A stretch of DNA of 21,468 nucleotides from a virus (taxonomy: Duplodnaviria; Heunggongvirae; Uroviricota; Caudoviricetes): the IMG/VR virus record IMGVR_UViG_3300029058_000046, one strand, 5' to 3'. The notes below the pieces were generated by a model. That model made no database searches. It worked only from the letters and a program-made list of their open reading frames with translations, and was not told the origin of the DNA. Shown piece by piece: positions 8,146 through 21,318 of the stretch. A program made the translations under genes and the position numbers. The stretch's first letter is position 1, and each line of letters begins with the position of its first letter.

Positions 8146-8913
8146 TTATGCCGCGCTAACACTATGTTCAGTCCTAACCACCCCAACCTTCACAAAAGGG
8201 CTACCGTAGCTTGGTGGCTTCTTGATTAATTTGCCTACATACAGTTTTCTAATATGCTCATCGGCTATTCTGCCAACAAATTCATAACGTTTTGTGTCGG
8301 GGCCAAGAGCTATATCCCTTGTAAAGTACTGCTGAGAACCGGCTTTGACCCAGCATTCAATCTGATAAACTTCCATTATCAGCCCACCATATGTAGCGTA
8401 GGCATATTTGAGATTCTCGTCTCTTGGAACCTTTGCCCATACGCCACGCGTAGCCTCATATAATGCCAGAGCGGACATTCCTGACTTGTAGGTGCTGTTT
8501 AGCAGGAAGGCAAGACCGGCGTGCTCAGGAGCAATTTCAGTTTCCTCTTGCAGCACTAAGTGATGGTAGGCGTCCAGTGATATTCTGCCCATCATGGAAC
8601 CACTTCCTCGTACCTTATTCGTAAGCTCTCCGACCCCCATAAGGTCGATGCATGTCGCCTCAACAAGTTTGGCTGTGGTTTCATCCATACCATGACGAAG
8701 TATATCTATGCCTAATTTTTTATTAGCCAAAAGTTCTTTGATCCGCATGGATTTGGGAGAGTCATCGGGATACTTGATGTGATCGAGACAACGAGTCGAT
8801 TTGCCTTTTCCTATGTAAAACGGTCTTTTCATCTTGTCTTCTGTATCATAGAGACAGTAAACATAGTATTTAGCCTTATCCAATGATCTCGCGTATACCG
8901 ATAAATCGTCCAT
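8146..8913 (-). CDS. GIY-YIG nuclease-domain protein (255 aa) with an unassigned ~160-aa C-terminal domain
   Basis: N-terminal YVYCLYD...RPFYIGKGK...R..H...E pattern matches the GIY-YIG catalytic motif. Only sizeable antisense gene in the partition/replication region. Confidence 0.7.
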   Translation of the reverse strand: MDDLSVYARSLDKAKYYVYCLYDTEDKMKRPFYIGKGKSTRCLDHIKYPDDSPKSMRIKELLANKKLGIDILRHGMDETTAKLVEATCIDLMGVGELTNKVRGSGSMMGRISLDAYHHLVLQEETEIAPEHAGLAFLLNSTYKSGMSALALYEATRGVWAKVPRDENLKYAYATYGGLIMEVYQIECWVKAGSQQYFTRDIALGPDTKRYEFVGRIADEHIRKLYVGKLIKKPPSYGSPFVKVGVVRTEHSVSAA

Positions 8914-9079: not shown

Positions 9080-9195
9080 TCTTTTAAAAGACACCACCAG
9101 AACAACTCCCTTCCGTTTCCACTTCCAAAAACTGCCACCAGTCGCTATCATCCGCTCATTGTGATAAGTAAGTAACTACCTACCAGGTGAGCCAC

Positions 9196-9979: not shown

Positions 9980-11320
9980 ATGACCGAACTTTGCCATACA
10001 GGACGCGGGCTGTCCGAAGAGTTTGATGAAGATTTCCAGAACAGACTGACGGCATATTTTTGTCGTGATCACGAGTTTCTTACTCGTGCGGGAGATCTGG
10101 TTGTGCCTAGCCAATTTGCCAATGCGGCCAATGCCATATTGGTTAATATGGTTTCGGGCTATTACCGTATGTACAAGAGCGCGCCTTCTTCATCTGCGAT
10201 TCTGGATATGCTTAAGCGTGCGAAACGCGATAAGACCATCCGTGAGGAACTCTTCCCGGATGTTGTTGCTGCGTTTAAGCGCATCCTTGCAGAAAAATTG
10301 TCTGATACCTCGTACATGGTTGACCAGGTATCCACATTCGCAAAAAGTGTAGCGTTTGATGATGCTCTGATTAAAGCTGCTGAACTGAAAGAGAAGGGCG
10401 ACTTTCAGGGGGCGATGGCAATCATGGCCAAGGTTCAGCAGATAGGCTCGAACGAAGCGACCGGAATCTATGACTACTACACCTCCGCAAGTGAGCGATT
10501 GAAAGCGCGTGAATATGAGGCTTCAGAGGAGTATGTGCCAAACAGCATTACAACTGGACTCCCTCTGCTTGATAGATTGCTGTACCAAAAAGGCTGGGCA
10601 AAGCGCGAAATGGTGCTCTTCATGGGTTTTGCTAAATCCGGTAAATCGACCGCAATGGGTGAGTTTTCCATAAACGCTACGCTTGCTGGCTACAATGTTC
10701 TGTATCTCTCGCTGGAGGTTCACACCACCATTTTGTCCGACCGTTTTGATGCAAGATTGTCGGAGACGGAAATGTCCAAGCTGGTGGAACGGCGCGATGA
10801 AGTTCATCGCAAGTTGGCAGAGTTGGGAGCCACGAAGGGGATTGGTAGTTTGTGGGTTGTTGAGCGTCCGTCAGGAAGTATGTCACCGGCAGATCTGGAC
10901 CGTATGCTTAACAGTATGAAAGCCAATGGCATGGTGCCTGACATGGTTGTTGTCGACTACGCAGATTTGATGCGTGCCAGTTATGACCTTCGTGATGATC
11001 GCGCCAACATTCGTAGTATCTACACCGATTTACGTGCTCTTTATGACAAGCATAACGTTGCTGGTATCACGGCGTCGCAAACAAACCGTGAAGGTGGCGC
11101 GTCAGAAGTTGCCACAATGATGCACGCTGCCGACAACATCGAAAAAGTACGTATTGCTGACCTGGTAATAACGATCAACAAAACCGAAGAAGAAGAAGCG
11201 AAAGGAGAGGCTCGTCTCTACTTTGCTGGTTCGCGTAACCAGCAGGGAGGGATCAGCATTCGCGTTAAACAAAACCTCGAACAAATGCGCTTCATTGAGC
11301 GAATCTTAGACGTTACCTAA
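9980..11320 (+). CDS. DnaB-family replicative DNA helicase
   Basis: Walker A GFAKSGKST, SLE motif (LYLSLEV), Walker B-like VVVDYADLM and SQTNRE motif, in the order typical of DnaB/T7 gp4-type RecA-fold helicases. AAGGA RBS upstream. Confidence 0.85.
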   Translation: MTELCHTGRGLSEEFDEDFQNRLTAYFCRDHEFLTRAGDLVVPSQFANAANAILVNMVSGYYRMYKSAPSSSAILDMLKRAKRDKTIREELFPDVVAAFKRILAEKLSDTSYMVDQVSTFAKSVAFDDALIKAAELKEKGDFQGAMAIMAKVQQIGSNEATGIYDYYTSASERLKAREYEASEEYVPNSITTGLPLLDRLLYQKGWAKREMVLFMGFAKSGKSTAMGEFSINATLAGYNVLYLSLEVHTTILSDRFDARLSETEMSKLVERRDEVHRKLAELGATKGIGSLWVVERPSGSMSPADLDRMLNSMKANGMVPDMVVVDYADLMRASYDLRDDRANIRSIYTDLRALYDKHNVAGITASQTNREGGASEVATMMHAADNIEKVRIADLVITINKTEEEEAKGEARLYFAGSRNQQGGISIRVKQNLEQMRFIERILDVT

Positions 11321-11327
11321 AAAATAA

Positions 11328-11348
11328 GCGTGGAGAACACCTCCACGC
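11328..11348 (+). other. Perfect 8-bp hairpin (gcgtggag-aacac-ctccacgc) between the helicase stop and the primase gene
   Basis: Inverted repeat read directly. It contains the GTG that the ORF track uses as the primase start (11330), so that start is unlikely to be real. No U-tract. Confidence 0.35.
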
Positions 11349-11401
11349 TTGATTCATTGGTGAAACAACTTTTCTTTTGCCAAACCACAAAAGAAAAACA
11401 C

Positions 11402-12583
11402 ATGAGCCTTTATGTTATATCAACATTTAGGTTGGTCACAATATTGCCTGTTAAAAGTGGAATTATCGTGAGCGAGCTGAAAGAGCTAATTACCGAATTA
11501 GATTTTGAACAATGGTTGGATACTGAAGGTATCGTTTATCGACGTGGAGGCGTGAGTACTCGCGGTCGTGAAGTGAATATCAAGGAGTGTCCGGTATGCG
11601 GCAGCTCCAACTGGAAGGTATATTTCAATCTGACCAGTGGCGTCGGTAAATGCTTCGCTGGTGATCATCCCGAAGAGATTCAGTTCAATAAGCTGGTCTT
11701 CCTCAAGCACTACAGCGGTAAATCACGACGACAGTTCGAGGAATATGTGCAGAACGCTCTTCTTTCCCAGGGGTGGGCACCAAAGAAAGAAGAGATAGTG
11801 CTTGCAAGCACAGTCGAGTTAGAGGGACCAGTTGCACTCCCTCGTCATTACGATCTTCCTATAGATGGCCATCTTCCAGACTATCTGGTTGAACGAAATA
11901 TATCGCCTGAAATGGCAAAGTATTTTGACCTACGATACTGCGTCGAAGGCAAGCACGCTTATGTAGATCCGTATACAGATCAGGTTAAAGGACAGATTTT
12001 CGATATGCGAATACTGATACCGGTTTACGATCTGGATGGGGTAATGAAGACATTTCAAGGACGAGACATTACCGGTACAGCAGAACGCCGCTACCTCTTT
12101 CCTATGCAGCTTCCAGCTTCAGGTAAGTTTCTCTACAACGGCCACAATGCAGTCGGCAAACAGACTGTAGTTGTCTGTGAGGGGGCGTTCGATGTTATGG
12201 GGGTCAAACGAGCTATTTTTGACGAAGAAACATTACGCGATTACGTGGAACCAATAGGAACGTTCGGGATGCATCTATCTGGTAACACCACTCAGGATGC
12301 AGAAGATCAGTTGGGCGCGTTCCTGACGCTCAAGGCGCGTGGATTACGTAATGTGATCATGATGTGGGATAGTGAAAAGCAAGCTATACGAAACACTATG
12401 GCCGCAGCCAGGCGACTGACCAGTATCGGTCTTAATGTGAAAATTGCATGTTTGGGCGAGGAAGGACTCGACCCCGGCGATGCGACCCCGGGGCAGATTA
12501 TCAAAGCCTACTATTGCGCAAAACCTTACTCACGACAGCTTGAACTTTTAAGCAAGGTAAAAGGCATAGCAGCATTAGTTTGA
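11402..12583 (+). CDS. DNA primase (zinc-ribbon plus TOPRIM domain)
   Basis: Zinc-binding motif CPVCGSS...GKCFAGDH and TOPRIM-like acidic motifs (VVVCEGAFDVMGV, EEGLDPGD). Start uncertain: ATG 11402 or GTG 11468; 11330 sits inside a hairpin. Confidence 0.75.
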   Translation: MSLYVISTFRLVTILPVKSGIIVSELKELITELDFEQWLDTEGIVYRRGGVSTRGREVNIKECPVCGSSNWKVYFNLTSGVGKCFAGDHPEEIQFNKLVFLKHYSGKSRRQFEEYVQNALLSQGWAPKKEEIVLASTVELEGPVALPRHYDLPIDGHLPDYLVERNISPEMAKYFDLRYCVEGKHAYVDPYTDQVKGQIFDMRILIPVYDLDGVMKTFQGRDITGTAERRYLFPMQLPASGKFLYNGHNAVGKQTVVVCEGAFDVMGVKRAIFDEETLRDYVEPIGTFGMHLSGNTTQDAEDQLGAFLTLKARGLRNVIMMWDSEKQAIRNTMAAARRLTSIGLNVKIACLGEEGLDPGDATPGQIIKAYYCAKPYSRQLELLSKVKGIAALV

Positions 12584-13720
12584 ACCAGTATTAGTCACGT
12601 ACACATTGACCGAAAATGATTTAACTTCTGTGTTGAAGTTGTCAGTCATTACCGCGAGGTAGGCATTCTTGGTATCTCTGAATTGCTTCAGTATGATTTG
12701 AACGTTATCGGTGCAAACAAACGAGGTAGCCAGATTGCCTCCTTTCTCTGAAAAATCCTTCAGGAAGGTGCAGTCAACTTTGCCATCATTAGCGGTGAAG
12801 GTAGCATCATCACCCTGCCAGGTAAATGTAGCGTTAACGCCCTTATCAATGGATTTAGCAATAAGTCGCTGGGTGGCGGATTTTGTTTTGGCTTTGGAAG
12901 CCGGCGCTCGATATTTGCCGCTTTCTTTCAGTTCTGCAATGTAATCACAGCCATTTTTATCTTCTTTATCACAAGCAGCCTGATAAAGCTCAGCTGCTTT
13001 TTTATAGTCTTTTTTAACCCCTTCACCATACTCATACATAATGCCAAGATTTGTCATGGCATCGGCGTTTCCGAGTTCAGCAGCTTTTTTATACCACTTA
13101 ATTGCTTCGGCATCGTTGCGTTTAACACCTAAACCGTCATCGTATAAGGTGCCTAATGCGAACATGCCATCTGAACTACCTTGATCCGCCGCTTTTTTGT
13201 AATAAGTAAAAGCTTTTTTATAACTCTTTTGTACACCTTTACCATATTGGTAATACGCACCAAGAAGGTAGCTAGCTTTAACATACCCGGCATCAGAGGC
13301 TAGTTTGAAGTATTTAATGGCGAGCGCATGATCTACTTTACCAAGCATCCCCTTTTGATAAATAGCACCAAGATTGTTATAGGCTCTACCTTCACGAGCA
13401 TCTCCCGCAAGTTTGTAGTACTCAACTGCTTTATTTAAGTCTTTATCTACACCCTCGCCAAATGTGTACATAACCCCAAGTGCATAATATGCTACTTTGT
13501 CTCCCTTTTCTGCAGCGAGATCAATCCACTTCTTGGCCTCAACTACATCCTTATCAAAACCATTGATACCATCAAAATAATTTGTCCCTAACTCACTTTG
13601 TGCTGCGGTATCCCCTGCGGTAGCGGCTTCTATCAGCGTTTGTTTATTGTCTGCGTTAACGAATCCAGAGCTAAAAAGCAAAGTTAATGCCAGCAACGAT
13701 GAAGATTTTATGTATTTCAT
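12575..13720 (-). CDS. Secreted Sel1-like repeat protein with a ~130-aa non-repeat Cys-containing C-terminal domain
   Basis: Sec signal peptide MKYIKSSSLLALTLLFSSGFVNA/DN, then at least six ~36-aa repeats of the form A..YY..G.MY..GEGV.KD..KA..WYKKAA typical of Sel1 repeats. 3' end overlaps the primase 3' end by 9 bp. Start taken at the ATG for MKYIK; the track's TTG at 13765 is less likely. Confidence 0.75.
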   Translation of the reverse strand: MKYIKSSSLLALTLLFSSGFVNADNKQTLIEAATAGDTAAQSELGTNYFDGINGFDKDVVEAKKWIDLAAEKGDKVAYYALGVMYTFGEGVDKDLNKAVEYYKLAGDAREGRAYNNLGAIYQKGMLGKVDHALAIKYFKLASDAGYVKASYLLGAYYQYGKGVQKSYKKAFTYYKKAADQGSSDGMFALGTLYDDGLGVKRNDAEAIKWYKKAAELGNADAMTNLGIMYEYGEGVKKDYKKAAELYQAACDKEDKNGCDYIAELKESGKYRAPASKAKTKSATQRLIAKSIDKGVNATFTWQGDDATFTANDGKVDCTFLKDFSEKGGNLATSFVCTDNVQIILKQFRDTKNAYLAVMTDNFNTEVKSFSVNVYVTNTGSN

Positions 13721-13953
13721 ATTTTTTGTTCTGTTGATATAGGATGAACAGTTTAGACGCGGCAAGTGTCAAGTGTGCGAAAAATGGTACTTAAATTTAG
13801 TTAATATGTCAGCTTTGTTGATTTAGTTTATGGTCGGTAAAGTTACTAGGAAACTAATAACCATAAGAAATAGTACGCCATTTAATTATTGTGGCACTGC
13901 TCGTGTTTTGATTAACTAATACCTGCGATAAATATAAATAAAGGGAAGCCAAC

Positions 13954-14367
13954 ATGAGCAAAAATAAGCTGATTTTAACAGGAGCTTTATTGTCTTTGTT
14001 TGCTTTAGTGGGGTGTAAGCCTACAGACGAGAAGGCTATTGCTCTGGGCCAACAAGCAATTGCGGATGATATGAAAGATCCCACGTCGGTGATGTTTAGG
14101 AAAGATAAGTTTGTCAGGACTGATCATGACGATGGGAGTGTGACAGGCTTTGTGTGCGGAGAATTGAACGCCAAAAATGGCTTTGGTGCATACGTGGGCT
14201 ATCACTCATATGTTGTTGAACTCGAAATGAAGCCAAAGGGCATGTTTTCGAAAGGGGTGGTATACAAAATCCTATCGAAGTCGTTGGCACCTAATGATCC
14301 TCATGACTTACAGCGTTATAAGCAGGTCTACAGAAAGATGTGCAACAGTGAGGCTGTAGCTCATTAA
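13954..14367 (+). CDS. Lipoprotein (137 aa precursor), divergent from the Sel1-repeat gene
   Basis: Signal peptide with lipobox L-V-G-C (MSKNKLILTGALLSLFALVGCKP). AAGGGAAG RBS upstream. Confidence 0.65.
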   Translation: MSKNKLILTGALLSLFALVGCKPTDEKAIALGQQAIADDMKDPTSVMFRKDKFVRTDHDDGSVTGFVCGELNAKNGFGAYVGYHSYVVELEMKPKGMFSKGVVYKILSKSLAPNDPHDLQRYKQVYRKMCNSEAVAH

Positions 14368-14373
14368 TGGTGA

Positions 14374-14400
14374 ATGCCGGGCAGACTATAAGCCCGGCAT
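14374..14400 (+). terminator. Stem-loop after the lipoprotein gene (9-bp stem atgccgggc/gcccggcat); candidate terminator
   Basis: Perfect inverted repeat 7 nt after the stop codon; weak U-tract. Confidence 0.4.
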
Positions 14401-14492
14401 CTTCGTATAGGGAACTATTGCGCCTAAAATGATAAGTAGATACATACTTAGTTTTTTGTAAGAATACTTTCATCTGTTAGCTAGGAGTTGGT

Positions 14493-15269
14493 ATGAAAGA
14501 CGAAATTCAGAAATTGGCCTGTGACATCATTGATAAAACAGGTTTAGAAATCAGCGAGGGCAGTCGACTAGACATCATTGGAAAGGCCGTCAATACAGCA
14601 ATGAATCATATCGCTGCTCGTATGGACGAGATCCCGCTACCAGGGTTGCCTTATCTGAAGGTTGAGTTACACGTATGGGGCGAACCTTCTTGTGCACGGC
14701 GTTCTGCATTAGTTGTTTTTATTAGCAAAGAAAACCCGCTCAGTCTTAAAGTGCAGGTTGGAGCATGGCTTGATGGCAGAGTGATCTACACAAATACCGT
14801 TTTTTGTCTTTCAAACGACGAAACTATTGAAGCGGCCATTCAAGAAGCAGTTCTAGCAATGCGCAGCAGCGGTTTGATGAAGAATAACTACGAAGAGTAC
14901 TTGCGTTCGATAAGTGGTGAAAAGACATTATCTCTGAAAGCAGATTTCGTTACCCCGAAAAATCTGTTGGAAGTTTTGATTAATAAAGGGGCTAATAGTG
15001 CCGTAAATGTAATCAGAGAGAGTGAATACGCGTCTCTTTGGGATATGTGCAAAAGCCAGTTGGATCTTGTGCATATCGTTGTTGATGCGGGGAAGGCTTG
15101 TGATGGCGTAATGGCGGAATTTGCTGGGAAGATGGTCAGGATTGCTAACGAATTACCGATGATTAAGCAAGAGGCTAAATCATACGCCACCAATCATGTC
15201 ACAGAGCTTCTTGCCCCTTATCGCTTAGAAAGCGATCAGCGCAAGATGATTAGCTGGGGAAGTTGGTAA
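14493..15269 (+). CDS. Hypothetical protein (258 aa)
   Basis: ATG preceded by AGGAG-like RBS (ctaggagttggtATG). No recognisable motif. Confidence 0.55.
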   Translation: MKDEIQKLACDIIDKTGLEISEGSRLDIIGKAVNTAMNHIAARMDEIPLPGLPYLKVELHVWGEPSCARRSALVVFISKENPLSLKVQVGAWLDGRVIYTNTVFCLSNDETIEAAIQEAVLAMRSSGLMKNNYEEYLRSISGEKTLSLKADFVTPKNLLEVLINKGANSAVNVIRESEYASLWDMCKSQLDLVHIVVDAGKACDGVMAEFAGKMVRIANELPMIKQEAKSYATNHVTELLAPYRLESDQRKMISWGSW

Positions 15270-15335
15270 GCTCTCTGTGTGTCGTTTTTACGCAAATAAT
15301 GATAGGTAAGCACAAGATTATTTCTGGCGGTAATT

Positions 15336-15806
15336 GTGAAAGCTGATTTGTCAAAAATCCCTTCTATTTCAGGAAATAACGGTTATTCACTTCGTTGTGA
15401 GGAAGTAAAGATAAACGGTGAGTCGACATATTGCAGCTATTCCGTTTGCCAGCACACCATTCTTGCCTTCAAAGAAAACCGTCTTCCTCGAACTTCTTTC
15501 CAGTCGTGCGCAACCGCTATTAAAGCAGGCAAATGCAAGGCGTTAAAAATGATGGTTGAAGAGATTCGTAAAGGAGAATCTCTGTATTTCGAAGATATGA
15601 CCGCGCTCATTAAGGAGGTTGAAGAACGGAATAAACAAGCCAGAACTATAAAACGAAAACGTGACAGTGTAACGATTAATAGCATGGTTAAGAAGAGCAC
15701 CACATCACAAACAGCGATCACTGACGTGTATGCGGCGTTGCTTGAAGAAACAACAAAAGAAACACATGAGCAAATCGATCAACATATGGAGGTAAAACAA
15801 CAATGA
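15336..15806 (+). CDS. Hypothetical protein with Cys-rich N-terminal region and basic C-terminal tail; stop overlaps the ligase start
   Basis: ORF track start is GTG at 15336 and the first in-frame ATG is far downstream, so the start is uncertain. Cys pattern C..C...C....C..C may bind metal. Confidence 0.45.
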   Translation: MKADLSKIPSISGNNGYSLRCEEVKINGESTYCSYSVCQHTILAFKENRLPRTSFQSCATAIKAGKCKALKMMVEEIRKGESLYFEDMTALIKEVEERNKQARTIKRKRDSVTINSMVKKSTTSQTAITDVYAALLEETTKETHEQIDQHMEVKQQ

Positions 15807-17125
15807 AAAAGTTGATCGCACTTAAGCATAAGCTGGACGAAATGAAAGCTATGGGAACCAATGCAAAAAAAGAGGCATTGGCCAACATGGATGACTTCGA
15901 GCAAAGCATGGTTTCATTGATGCTCAACCCTTTCATCCGTTTTGGGGTAAAAAAATACAAAGTGGCAGAGCCGCTTAGTGAGTCCGTCCCAAGTGACGAA
16001 AAAGCCATTGATATACTGAATAAGCTGGCCTCTCGCGAGCTGACGGGGAACGCAGCAATAGTTGCTGTTGAGTCTATCGTGGCGTCAATGTGCGCCGATG
16101 GGCAGGACGTCTTCCGTCGTTTCCTCTTAAAAGATCCGAAAGCTGGCGTTGGGATTAGCCTATGTAACAAGGTTTTTGAAAATCCCATTCCGAAATTCGA
16201 GGTGCAGCTGGCGTCACCGTATAAAGAAAAAGGCGACAAATACCCCTTCAAGCCAAACCCTAAAGCAAAATGGCCGATGATTGGCAGCCTTAAGCTCGAT
16301 GGTTTGCGAGTAATTTGCGAGGTTATTGTTGACGAAGAAGAGGTTAACTTCCTTTCTCGTACTGGTAATCCAATCACGTCTCTCGATCACCTAAAGCCAG
16401 CCATGCTCGAATTAGGCAAACTTTCAGGCCACAAACACATCTTCTTCGATGGTGAAGGCACAGCCGGTTCATTTAACCAGTCCGTATCTGCATTGCGCAA
16501 AAAGAACGTGCAGGCAATTGGCGCTATTTATCATGTTTTCGACTTCTTCCTACCGGAATGGCGAGCACAGGCTAAATCCAAAGAGTATGCAAAGACAGGT
16601 ATGAAGCTGAAAGAGCGCCTGGCTATGCTCGTGGCGTTGTTCAAAAACGATCGCAGTGAAGGCTACGCACAAGACATTCACCTGCATCCGTTCTACATCA
16701 TCCATAGCCACGAAGACTTCATCGAACGCTTCATGAAACGCCTGGACGATAACGAAGAAGGGGAGATGGGCAAAGATCCGAACTCTGTTTACGAATTTAA
16801 ACGTACCCGCAGCTGGTGGAAGTTAAAAGACGAAGATTCAGAAGATGGTGAAATTATCGATTTTGAGCCGGGCGACCCGGACTCTGGTTTTGCCAACACG
16901 CTTGGAAAAATTGTTATTCGTCTTGAAAACGGCGTCATCGTTCGTGCGAGCGGCATTAAGCATAAATATCTGGACGAGATCTGGAACAACAAAGAGAAGT
17001 ACCGTGGTCGTATTGTCGAGGTTCATTGTCACGAGAAAACACCTGATGGCAGCTTACGCCACCCACGACTGAAATGGCCGCGTTGCTTACGCGATACAGA
17101 AGATCGAATCGGAGATAAAGAATGA
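15803..17125 (+). CDS. ATP-dependent DNA ligase
   Basis: Adenylation motif I KLDGLR (in IGSLKLDGLRVI), motif III-like FFDGEG, motif V-like WWKLK. GGAGG RBS 10 nt upstream. Confidence 0.85.
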   Translation: MKKLIALKHKLDEMKAMGTNAKKEALANMDDFEQSMVSLMLNPFIRFGVKKYKVAEPLSESVPSDEKAIDILNKLASRELTGNAAIVAVESIVASMCADGQDVFRRFLLKDPKAGVGISLCNKVFENPIPKFEVQLASPYKEKGDKYPFKPNPKAKWPMIGSLKLDGLRVICEVIVDEEEVNFLSRTGNPITSLDHLKPAMLELGKLSGHKHIFFDGEGTAGSFNQSVSALRKKNVQAIGAIYHVFDFFLPEWRAQAKSKEYAKTGMKLKERLAMLVALFKNDRSEGYAQDIHLHPFYIIHSHEDFIERFMKRLDDNEEGEMGKDPNSVYEFKRTRSWWKLKDEDSEDGEIIDFEPGDPDSGFANTLGKIVIRLENGVIVRASGIKHKYLDEIWNNKEKYRGRIVEVHCHEKTPDGSLRHPRLKWPRCLRDTEDRIGDKE

Positions 17126-17936: not shown

Positions 17937-18140
17937 AAACATTTCGATAAGTATTTACTTACCTATCTTTTATGTATAAGATGACTTTGTTTTCGTTGAG
18001 ACGCGACTGTTTGAACTTAAATACAAGTGCAAACGAAGAAGTCTATCTGGCAGTAGCCTAATAAGCCAAACACCAGCGAGGTCAGTTTCCAGCCTCGTTA
18101 CCGAAATGGGACACACTGAGCGAGTGTGATTGCAGAACGC

Positions 18141-18718: not shown

Positions 18719-18793
18719 GATGGTGTAGCTCAGCGGTAGATCAGTTGGCTGTTAACCAACTGGTCGGTGGTTCGAATCCACCCACCATCGCCA
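18719..18793 (+). tRNA. tRNA-Asn (anticodon GUU), CCA encoded
   Basis: Manual fold: acceptor gatggtg/caccatc, anticodon stem gttgg/ccaac with loop CTGTTAA, T-arm ggtgg-ttcgaat-ccacc, discriminator G, CCA. The D-stem has one mismatch. Confidence 0.75.
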
Positions 18794-18798
18794 ATTTA

Positions 18799-18885
18799 GG
18801 GGAGTTAGTCCGTAGAGGTAGCGGTGTAGACTGTAAATCTACTGTCATGGCGACTCGGGTGGTTCGACTCCATCACTCCCCACCA
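18799..18885 (+). tRNA. tRNA-Tyr (anticodon GUA), class II with long variable arm, CCA encoded
   Basis: Acceptor ggggagt/actcccc, anticodon stem-loop gtaga-CTGTAAA-tctac, ~15-nt variable arm, T-loop ttcgact, CCA. Starts 5 nt after tRNA-Asn. Confidence 0.8.
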
Positions 18886-18889
18886 AATT

Positions 18890-18965
18890 GCCGGTTTAGC
18901 TCAGTTGGTAGAGCAGTCGCTTTGTAAGCGAATGGCCAGCGGTTCAAGTCCGTTAACCGGCACCA
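18890..18965 (+). tRNA. tRNA-Thr (anticodon UGU), CCA encoded
   Basis: Canonical D-arm tagctcagttggtagagc, anticodon loop TTTGTAA, T-arm agcgg-ttcaagt-ccgtt, acceptor gccggtt/aaccggc, CCA. Starts 4 nt after tRNA-Tyr. Confidence 0.85.
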
Positions 18966-20606: not shown

Positions 20607-21318
20607 CACAAAAGAAATTGCGGCAATGCTCAATGGATACATAGACGAGGGCAAGGCGGCGTCAGCCAAGTTAATCAGATCAACACTGAGCGATGCATTC
20701 CGAGAGGCAATAGCTGAAGGCCATATAACAACAAACCCTGTCGCTGCCACTCGCGCAGCAAAATCAGAGGTAAGGAGATCAAGACTTACGGCTGACGAAT
20801 ACCTGAAAATTTATCAAGCAGCAGAATCATCACCATGTTGGCTCAGACTTGCAATGGAACTGGCTGTTGTTACCGGGCAACGAGTTGGTGATTTATGCGA
20901 AATGAAGTGGTCTGATATCGTAGATGGATATCTTTATGTCGAGCAAAGCAAAACAGGCGTAAAAATTGCCATCCCAACAGTATTGCATGTTGATGCTCTC
21001 GGAATATCAATGAAGGAAACACTTGATAAATGCAAAGAGATTCTTGGCGGAGAAACCATAATTGCATCTACTCGTCGCGAACCGCTTTCATCCGGCACAG
21101 TATCAAGGTATTTTATGCGCGCACGAAAAGCATCAGGTCTTTCCTTCGAAGGGGATCCGCCTACCTTTCACGAGTTGCGCAGTTTGTCTGCAAGACTCTA
21201 TGAGAAGCAGATAAGCGATAAGTTTGCTCAACATCTTCTCGGGCATAAGTCGGACACCATGGCATCACAGTATCGTGATGACAGAGGCAGGGAGTGGGAC
21301 AAAATTGAAATCAAATAA
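20607..21318 (+). pseudogene. int: 3' fragment of a lambda-type tyrosine integrase gene (about residues 111-356), cut off at its 5' end by IS911
   Basis: Translation from TKEIAAMLNGYIDEGKAASAK to ...HKSDTMASQYRDDRGREWDKIEIK matches the recalled phage lambda Int C-terminus, including the catalytic tyrosine region. The track's ORF start at 20581 lies inside the IS911 terminal repeat. Confidence 0.9.

Follow-up and report, generated by a model that had tools for sequence, protein, structure and literature searches.

The 21,468-nucleotide stretch of viral DNA analyzed here (IMG/VR record IMGVR_UViG_3300029058_000046; the whole stretch is called the window below) encodes two predicted exported proteins, a 381-aa Sel1-like-repeat (SLR) protein and a 137-aa lipoprotein, between its DNA primase gene and the next block of replication genes. 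We favor, with moderate confidence, the explanation that these are two independently acquired morons, or lysogenic-conversion genes, that occupy a slot separating two transcription units of replication genes and whose products benefit the lysogen by acting on its envelope. They are cargo genes and not replication functions, and their location, export and fold together suggest envelope protection of the lysogen. Phage morons are a known kind of gene; the main interest lies in a large uncharacterized lipoprotein family and in an orphan domain at the C terminus of the Sel1 protein. A first-pass annotation of this DNA had offered exclusion, host interaction or envelope modification as roles for the pair, which is still a reasonable, if unspecific, guess.

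Over the region tested, the window was 100% identical to the E. coli plasmid pM160133_p3 and 98.4% identical to pECOH89, and its kin include Salmonella phage SSU5 and Escherichia phage Cyrano. Because of these plasmid identities and this relatedness, we assign the window to the SSU5-like phage-plasmids, as an element of E. coli. The group, which includes SSU5, pHCM2, pECOH89 and Cyrano, has been described previously (PMC7969092, PMC3999498), and the order of the helicase, primase and ligase genes in its members is the same as in the window, with no difference at the level of the element. Clinical Enterobacterales commonly carry SSU5-like phage-plasmids, which disseminate resistance genes (for example, blaCTX-M-15). 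Text searches returned no paper on the cargo slot, its contents or these genes.

Alignment with relatives places the left edge of the slot at the primase stop codon and its right edge at a conserved palindrome (14433-14450) 5' of the next operon. In pairwise BLAST, homology to Cyrano ended at 12567 and restarted at 14432, so that a block of ~1.86 kb in the window corresponds to ~30 bp in Cyrano. In Cyrano, CMS-2020a and PhiR41_1, the gap from the primase to the next gene is ~75 bp, and these elements covered 36-37% of a 3-kb query; in the window the next plus-strand gene begins at 14493 and the two cargo ORFs lie between. The primase C terminus reads GIAALV followed by the stop codon in the window, versus GIKALS and stop in a cargo-free relative.

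Comparison of this locus among relatives, which the first-pass annotation had recommended, revealed a variable slot with several states of occupancy. The slot was empty in Cyrano and many E. coli plasmids. Enterobacter, Salmonella and Cronobacter elements carried only the lipoprotein gene, 33-57 bp after the primase gene and on the same strand, and pRM13322 (345 aa) and elements of Enterobacter and Citrobacter (417 aa) carried only the Sel1 gene. Both genes were present in the window and in all eight contigs examined for the exact lipoprotein sequence. Other occupants included an unrelated 321-aa antisense ORF in SSU5 (SSU5_041; locus L002, 4586-5551, minus strand), for which neither a signal peptide nor a Pfam match was found, and, in another relative, sulfatase genes with an IS5 element. 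Among 366 plasmid records matching a query that covered the primase 3' end and flanking backbone, the Sel1 C-terminal domain occurred in 91 and the lipoprotein in 74. Thus, the genes that had been described as embedded in the replication module instead occupy a presence/absence site, and because each was found alone at that same site they are separable and do not form an obligate pair. Their presence had also been called unexpected, but exported proteins at variable sites are the normal moron pattern in temperate phages (PMC3594210). The commonest occupants of the slot are predicted envelope proteins, and its definition should aid the reading of SSU5-like accessory genomes.

Two further observations concern this region. 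The match to window positions 12000-15000 in NZ_CP035843.1 (72651-77610) measured 4,960 bp versus 3,001 bp and contained IS100 (istA/istB), and no primase CDS was listed under it. A 10-nt direct repeat that flanks the block (12510 and 14414) was considered as a target-site duplication and rejected, as chance alone would give ~3 repeats of this kind in 2.4 kb.

Table 1. Features of the cargo slot and of the surrounding replication genes (positions in the window).
Feature	Position	Strand	Basis or remark
Optional cargo block (Sel1 gene, spacer, lipoprotein gene, hairpin)	12568..14431	.	Missing from otherwise collinear relatives
Gene for 381-aa SLR protein, predicted exported	12575..13720	-	Pfam Sel1, phrog_8741, AF2 model, Foldseek
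Sec signal peptide of Sel1 protein, aa 1-23	13652..13720	-	Predicted cleavage VNA/D; read from sequence
SLR solenoid, aa 24-268	12917..13651	-	Mosaic; repeat number varies between alleles
Orphan C-terminal domain, aa 283-381 (C317, C336)	12578..12874	-	
AT-rich spacer between the divergent genes	13721..13953	.	233 bp, 33% GC; presumed promoter region
Gene for 137-aa lipoprotein, cystatin/NTF2-like fold	13954..14367	+	
Hairpin after lipoprotein gene, 9-bp, GC-rich	14374..14400	+	Terminator-like; minimum free energy -22.1 kcal/mol, z = -2.4
Palindrome TAAGTA-N6-TACTTA, right edge of slot	14433..14450	.	5' of next operon (orf258 to ligase)
DnaB-type helicase	9980-11320	+	
DNA primase (backbone)	11330..12583 (RefSeq start 11468)	+	DNAG_N and Toprim_2 matches; RefSeq name in identical plasmid
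ATP-dependent ligase	15803-17125	+	

Analysis of the Sel1 gene upheld the earlier description of an antisense gene for a Sel1-repeat protein of 381 aa with a Sec signal. The ORF spans 12575..13765 on the minus strand, and an in-frame ATG at 13720 yields 381 aa, identical to the 1146-nt CDS that RefSeq gives in the identical plasmid. Pfam Sel1 (PF08238) matched six stretches (E=5.6e-53; 175.9 bits versus a cut-off of 30.7), and phrog_8741 matched over the full length. The reported 9-bp tail-to-tail overlap with the primase gene was also found (Sel1 stop codon at 12575-12577, primase stop at 12581-12583); it involves the last three primase codons and is kept in pRM13322 and in the Enterobacter and Citrobacter relatives. 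Export signals were judged by rules and by conservation. The N terminus, MKYIK-SSSLLALTLLFSSGF-VNA/D (the slash marks the predicted cleavage site), begins with a basic n-region, continues with a hydrophobic core of 15 aa and ends with small residues at -3 and -1; diverged alleles (AHA/Y and AVA/N) retain this layout.

In an AlphaFold2 (AF2) model of the Sel1 protein, residues 22-272 formed 14 helices in seven pairs, an alpha/alpha solenoid modeled with a predicted local distance difference test (pLDDT) score above 90. The closest solved relatives were EsiB/c5321 of uropathogenic E. coli (E=9e-66, 36% identity over 246 columns), SLR proteins of Oxalobacter, HcpC, LpnE and LceB, and Foldseek matched the model to EsiB (E=6e-15), HcpC (3e-14), LpnE and LceB. 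Like EsiB/c5321 (4BWR), H. pylori HcpC (1OUV) and Legionella LpnE and LceB, the Sel1 protein has tandem 36-aa repeats, an alpha-solenoid and a signal peptide, with 31-37% identity over ~245 residues and query-normalized TM scores of 0.56-0.61. Unlike them, it carries an additional conserved, beta-rich domain of ~100 aa and is encoded almost only on SSU5-like phage-plasmids. The solenoid itself varies in length, since whole 36-aa repeats separate the 345-, 381- and 417-aa alleles, and in divergence, with dS values of 0.3-1.7 in the repeats versus 0.03-0.15 in the last 99 residues. Because this unevenness lies in dS, we interpret the solenoid as a mosaic produced by recombination; diversifying selection on the repeats was considered and rejected, since dN/dS is ~0.12 there. 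Purifying selection throughout is indicated by dN/dS values of 0.11-0.16 for the repeats and 0.03-0.15 for the C-terminal domain. A weak PADLOC match of the protein to PtuA scored 21.7 bits without any significant stretch, and we attribute it to noise from the repeats.

The cysteine-containing C-terminal domain proposed by the first-pass annotation is a real conserved unit, with C317 and C336 among four cysteines (C250, C258, C317 and C336) that were invariant in eight alleles. Among E. coli-type alleles this domain is at least 96% identical (0-4 substitutions in 99 codons), and identity is ~72% in Enterobacter and Citrobacter. Single-sequence and profile searches found no relative in Pfam or the PDB, with one chance-level PDB hit (E=0.53), and the homologues in the protein collection were few and restricted to close Enterobacterales relatives. 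The structure prediction that had been suggested for this part of the protein was informative for the solenoid only. One homologue is an IS-truncated copy in a mobile region of Enterobacter kobei that also contains phage tail genes, an integrase and a transposase. The full protein, solenoid and C-terminal domain, has a chromosomal homologue in a Pantoea metagenome-assembled genome (locus L109, 6357-7597), where a frameshift or a sequencing error divides it into two ORFs, one of 199 aa with a signal peptide and one of 198 aa. Its neighbors are non-phage genes (GntR-aminotransferase and LysR), and it may represent a bacterial source of the Sel1 cargo gene.

The resemblance to EsiB, HcpC, LpnE and LceB raises another explanation: the Sel1 protein, alone or together with the lipoprotein, would be a host-interaction or colonization factor that acts on the animal host, as do EsiB, which binds sIgA, the Hcp proteins of H. 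pylori and LpnE/EnhC of Legionella, and the phage-plasmid would carry a virulence or fitness trait. The many carrier plasmids from clinical isolates would fit such a role, although carriers also came from soil, pigs, poultry and wastewater, and the lipoprotein family is found across prophages of environmental Proteobacteria. Because the similarity to the solved SLR proteins is at the level of the repeats, their binding partners are not transferable to the Sel1 protein. Moreover, the protein has a Sec signal alone and no dedicated secretion system is encoded nearby, for which reason a periplasmic location is expected. We regard a role in the animal host as unlikely.

The divergently transcribed lipoprotein was likewise borne out. 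Its sequence starts MSKNKLILTGALLSLFALVG-C-K, with the lipobox LVGC at residues 18-21, and both L18 and C21 were invariant in nine close homologues. Since the residue at +2 is Lys and not Asp, the established Lol-avoidance rule predicts that Lol delivers the lipoprotein to the outer membrane, where it would reside in the inner leaflet. The gene is under purifying selection (dN/dS 0.04-0.06), and the exact protein sequence occurred in 4,204 indexed blocks of an assembly collection, with the same gene neighborhood in eight of eight places examined. Sequence searches placed it in no family of Pfam, NCBIfam, PADLOC or the PDB, and a fold search of BFVD returned only uncharacterized phage proteins. 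An exhaustive phmmer search recovered homologues in at least 1,346 representative clusters (E<=1e-3; clusters at 50% identity) that range over the Alpha-, Beta- and Gammaproteobacteria.

Most members of this family are 100-140 aa long and share the signature LKDPxSAxFR...VCGEVNAKNSFGAYxG...C. In a sample of 74, 50 matched a lipobox regular expression, the remainder having mostly type I signal peptides or membrane anchors, and 67 had exactly two cysteines in the mature domain. Paired cysteines, like export signals, are a feature of both cargo products. Some longer members carry SPOR or SH3 wall-binding domains, which links the family to the cell wall. AF2 modeling on the family alignment (pLDDT 91.9) gave a helix, a four-stranded antiparallel sheet and a C-terminal helix; the fold is cystatin/NTF2-like. 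Identity to cystatin, latexin and VirB8 (NTF2-like) fold proteins is just 6-13%, and the inhibitory QxVxG loop motif of cystatins is absent, by eye, from the lipoprotein and from the family consensus; the family has its own signature instead, D-P-x-S...C-G-x-V-N-A-K-N-x-x-G-x-Y-x-G...C. A role as o-spanin or in lysis was rejected for the window lipoprotein, whose globular domain of 116 aa contains an intramolecular cysteine pair and whose gene has no lysis genes beside it.

Members of the family also recur in other prophages. The P2-like phage SEN5 carries a homologue between ogr and int, and phage Fraca has one among its tail genes. We extended this comparison to 80 proteobacterial genome loci, in which the nearest ORF on each side was scanned against Pfam. 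Upstream neighbors included a cI-type repressor (HTH and S24 domains) on the same strand in 7-8 loci, gpK (JAB and NlpC/P60) in five, Ogr and Mor in three each, and tail protein T in two, and the downstream neighbor was a tape-measure protein in about a dozen of 73. Spot checks confirmed this pattern: co-oriented repressor genes ended <50 bp 5' of the family gene, and tape-measure genes followed it directly. The HK97 superinfection-exclusion moron gp15 also sits just upstream of the tape-measure gene (PMC3594210). These are classical moron slots, and on this positional evidence the family may have an envelope function expressed in the lysogen. More tentatively, the family could be a new and widespread class of envelope-level anti-phage (superinfection-exclusion) or enzyme-inhibitor proteins; the sites after cI, before the tape-measure gene and beside gpK-type peptidases would then be explained by inhibition of the tail machinery with which incoming phages penetrate the cell wall. 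If this holds, the orphan C-terminal domain of the Sel1 protein would be a second, separate novelty. The window lipoprotein gives access to a very large family that is unannotated, associated with prophages and sited where exclusion genes usually lie.

A cystatin-like fold also suits an enzyme inhibitor, and outer-membrane lipoproteins are a common class of immunity proteins. The cargo could on these grounds be orphan immunity against contact-dependent toxins that act in the periplasm, such as lipases of the Tle/PldB type or amidases of the Tae type delivered by type VI secretion systems (T6SS), and would protect the host from its neighbors. The periplasmic SLR proteins PA5086 and PA5087 (5jkp, titled immunity protein) are detectable relatives of the Sel1 protein, but their matches are weak compared with those of other SLR proteins (E ~1e-14 to 1e-16, TM 0.33-0.35). 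Neither the window nor the related loci examined contained an adjacent effector, VgrG or PAAR gene, and the neighbors of the lipoprotein family in the contexts examined were phage genes, not T6SS genes. We consider orphan immunity improbable.

The sequences that flank and separate the two genes bear on how they are expressed. The palindrome at the right edge of the slot reads TAAGTAGATACATACTTA, and its half-sites were invariant in six diverged SSU5-like variants, which included those of SSU5, Cyrano, Enterobacter and Cronobacter. Related copies, (GA)TAAGTA-N6-TAC(C/T)TA, lie at 9165-9182, just 5' of the helicase-primase block, and at 17948-17965. Overall, seven matches were found versus 0.54 expected, with both strands counted and including one further plus-strand match at 20771-20788. 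Two of the three copies stand directly 5' of plus-strand replication-gene blocks. The palindrome probably serves the replication operons as an operator or promoter element. When it is read in this way, the cargo falls between two transcription units and not within one. Downstream of the lipoprotein gene, the hairpin has an equivalent 3' of the gene in the lipoprotein-only elements of Enterobacter and Cronobacter (L010 and L012), where the order of the arms is reversed (GCCCGGC...GCCGGGC versus GCCGGGC...GCCCGGC). No terminator was found for the Sel1 gene.

The claim of a shared, AT-rich promoter region between the divergent genes held only in part. The spacer is indeed AT-rich, with a length close to the 230 bp first given, and is 85-99% identical between alleles. 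A promoter consensus scan returned six sites versus 5.7 expected by chance, which leaves a shared promoter unsupported; within the spacer there was one weak minus-strand site (13812-13784) and no plus-strand site. The divergent layout around this spacer would be compatible with functional coupling of the two genes: a bidirectional promoter would drive both, and their products would join in a single envelope complex. Consistent with such coupling, Escherichia plasmids nearly always carry both genes (whole block in 53 records, Sel1 domain in 60, lipoprotein in 55), which we attribute to descent. However, each gene occurs alone in elements of other genera and, for Sel1, in pRM13322, as described above, and homologues of the lipoprotein reside in other prophages that lack a Sel1 partner. 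We consider a coupled module of this kind a poor explanation of the locus.

Host genes introduced by misassembly, the refutation that the first-pass annotation itself had put forward, and chance non-coding ORFs are both negligible explanations, as the block has identical flanks in dozens of independently closed plasmids, the 62 carriers among 5,426 complete E. coli genomes held it at 63 plasmid places and 0 chromosomal ones, its GC content (~41%) lies below that of the backbone (~46%) and is not host-like, and both genes, intact and widespread, are under purifying selection, with a strong Pfam match and a confident structural model.

We return to the explanation of the two genes as independently acquired morons. 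In the sense of Juhala and Hendrix, a moron is extra DNA of divergent base composition, with its own promoter and terminator, that is expressed from the repressed prophage. The block is DNA that collinear relatives lack, and its GC content is 41.1% versus 45.8% for the rest of the window (Sel1 gene 41.4%, lipoprotein gene 43.5%, backbone genes 40.8% to 49.7%). In being an add-on between collinear genomes, with small predicted envelope proteins as products, the block resembles the morons HK97 gp15, lambda bor and lom, and phi80/N15 cor. It differs from them in that its genes lack sequence homology to gp15, Bor, Lom and Cor, its own promoter and terminator were not demonstrated by scan, and the slot lies between phage-plasmid replication operons and not in a tail or immunity region. 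A second group for comparison comprises the exclusion lipoproteins T5 Llp, Cor and Ltp of Streptococcus phage TP-J34 (PMC3952083 for Ltp), which like the window lipoprotein are phage-encoded and, as is predicted for it, exposed at the envelope. Relatives of the window lipoprotein are often encoded beside tail, tape-measure or repressor genes. In contrast to Llp, Cor and Ltp, it has a different, unrelated fold (cystatin/NTF2-like), and searches of PHROGs, PADLOC and PDB sequences did not place it in their families.

For the two genes as morons, we propose the following mode of action. Both proteins would be made in the plasmid-prophage state. The lipoprotein would be lipidated and sorted by Lol to the outer membrane, and the Sel1 protein would stay in the periplasm as a protein-binding scaffold. 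Their most likely action would be to block the entry of superinfecting phages or to neutralize an enzyme or toxin that acts on the envelope.

Several findings weigh against this explanation. The lipoprotein gene of the lipoprotein-only relatives looks co-transcribed with the primase gene, so that expression with the replication genes in the lytic phase, rather than in the lysogen, is possible. Homology to characterized exclusion proteins was not detected; the seven PHROG matches are all of 'unknown function', and PADLOC returned nothing meaningful. The C-terminal domain of the Sel1 protein lacks a fold or family match, and its pLDDT in the single-sequence AF2 model was below 40. The GC gap between block and backbone is small, the promoter scan stayed at chance level, and the hairpin at 14374-14400 lacks a T-run and was not called by a terminator scan.

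Outside the slot, further regions of the window also differ among relatives. A cluster of three tRNA genes (Asn-GTT, Tyr-GTA and Thr-TGT) was identified at 18719-18965 on the plus strand by ARAGORN and Rfam. At the equivalent place Cyrano has tRNAs for Asn, Thr and Ser instead, so the tRNA set varies among relatives.

In a pECOH89-type relative (locus L016, 8861-11633, corresponding to window positions of about 15300-15800), a Pfam Beta-lactamase gene and a DDE transposase gene replace the ligase gene after orf258. There, a gene of 156/160 aa is shortened to 85 aa, and the ligase gene was not called in the locus. The beta-lactamase is presumably the blaCTX-M-15 reported for pECOH89-type plasmids.

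Finally, a second variable slot lies 5' of the helicase-primase block (8146-8913, minus strand), where the window carries an antisense gene for a 255-aa LEM-3-like GIY-YIG nuclease. Relatives have at this site a DUF2971 protein, a KAP-NTPase-like protein, a 390-aa ORF, or a RelE/ParE toxin with a hypothetical gene, and the site looks like a location for defense or addiction cargo.

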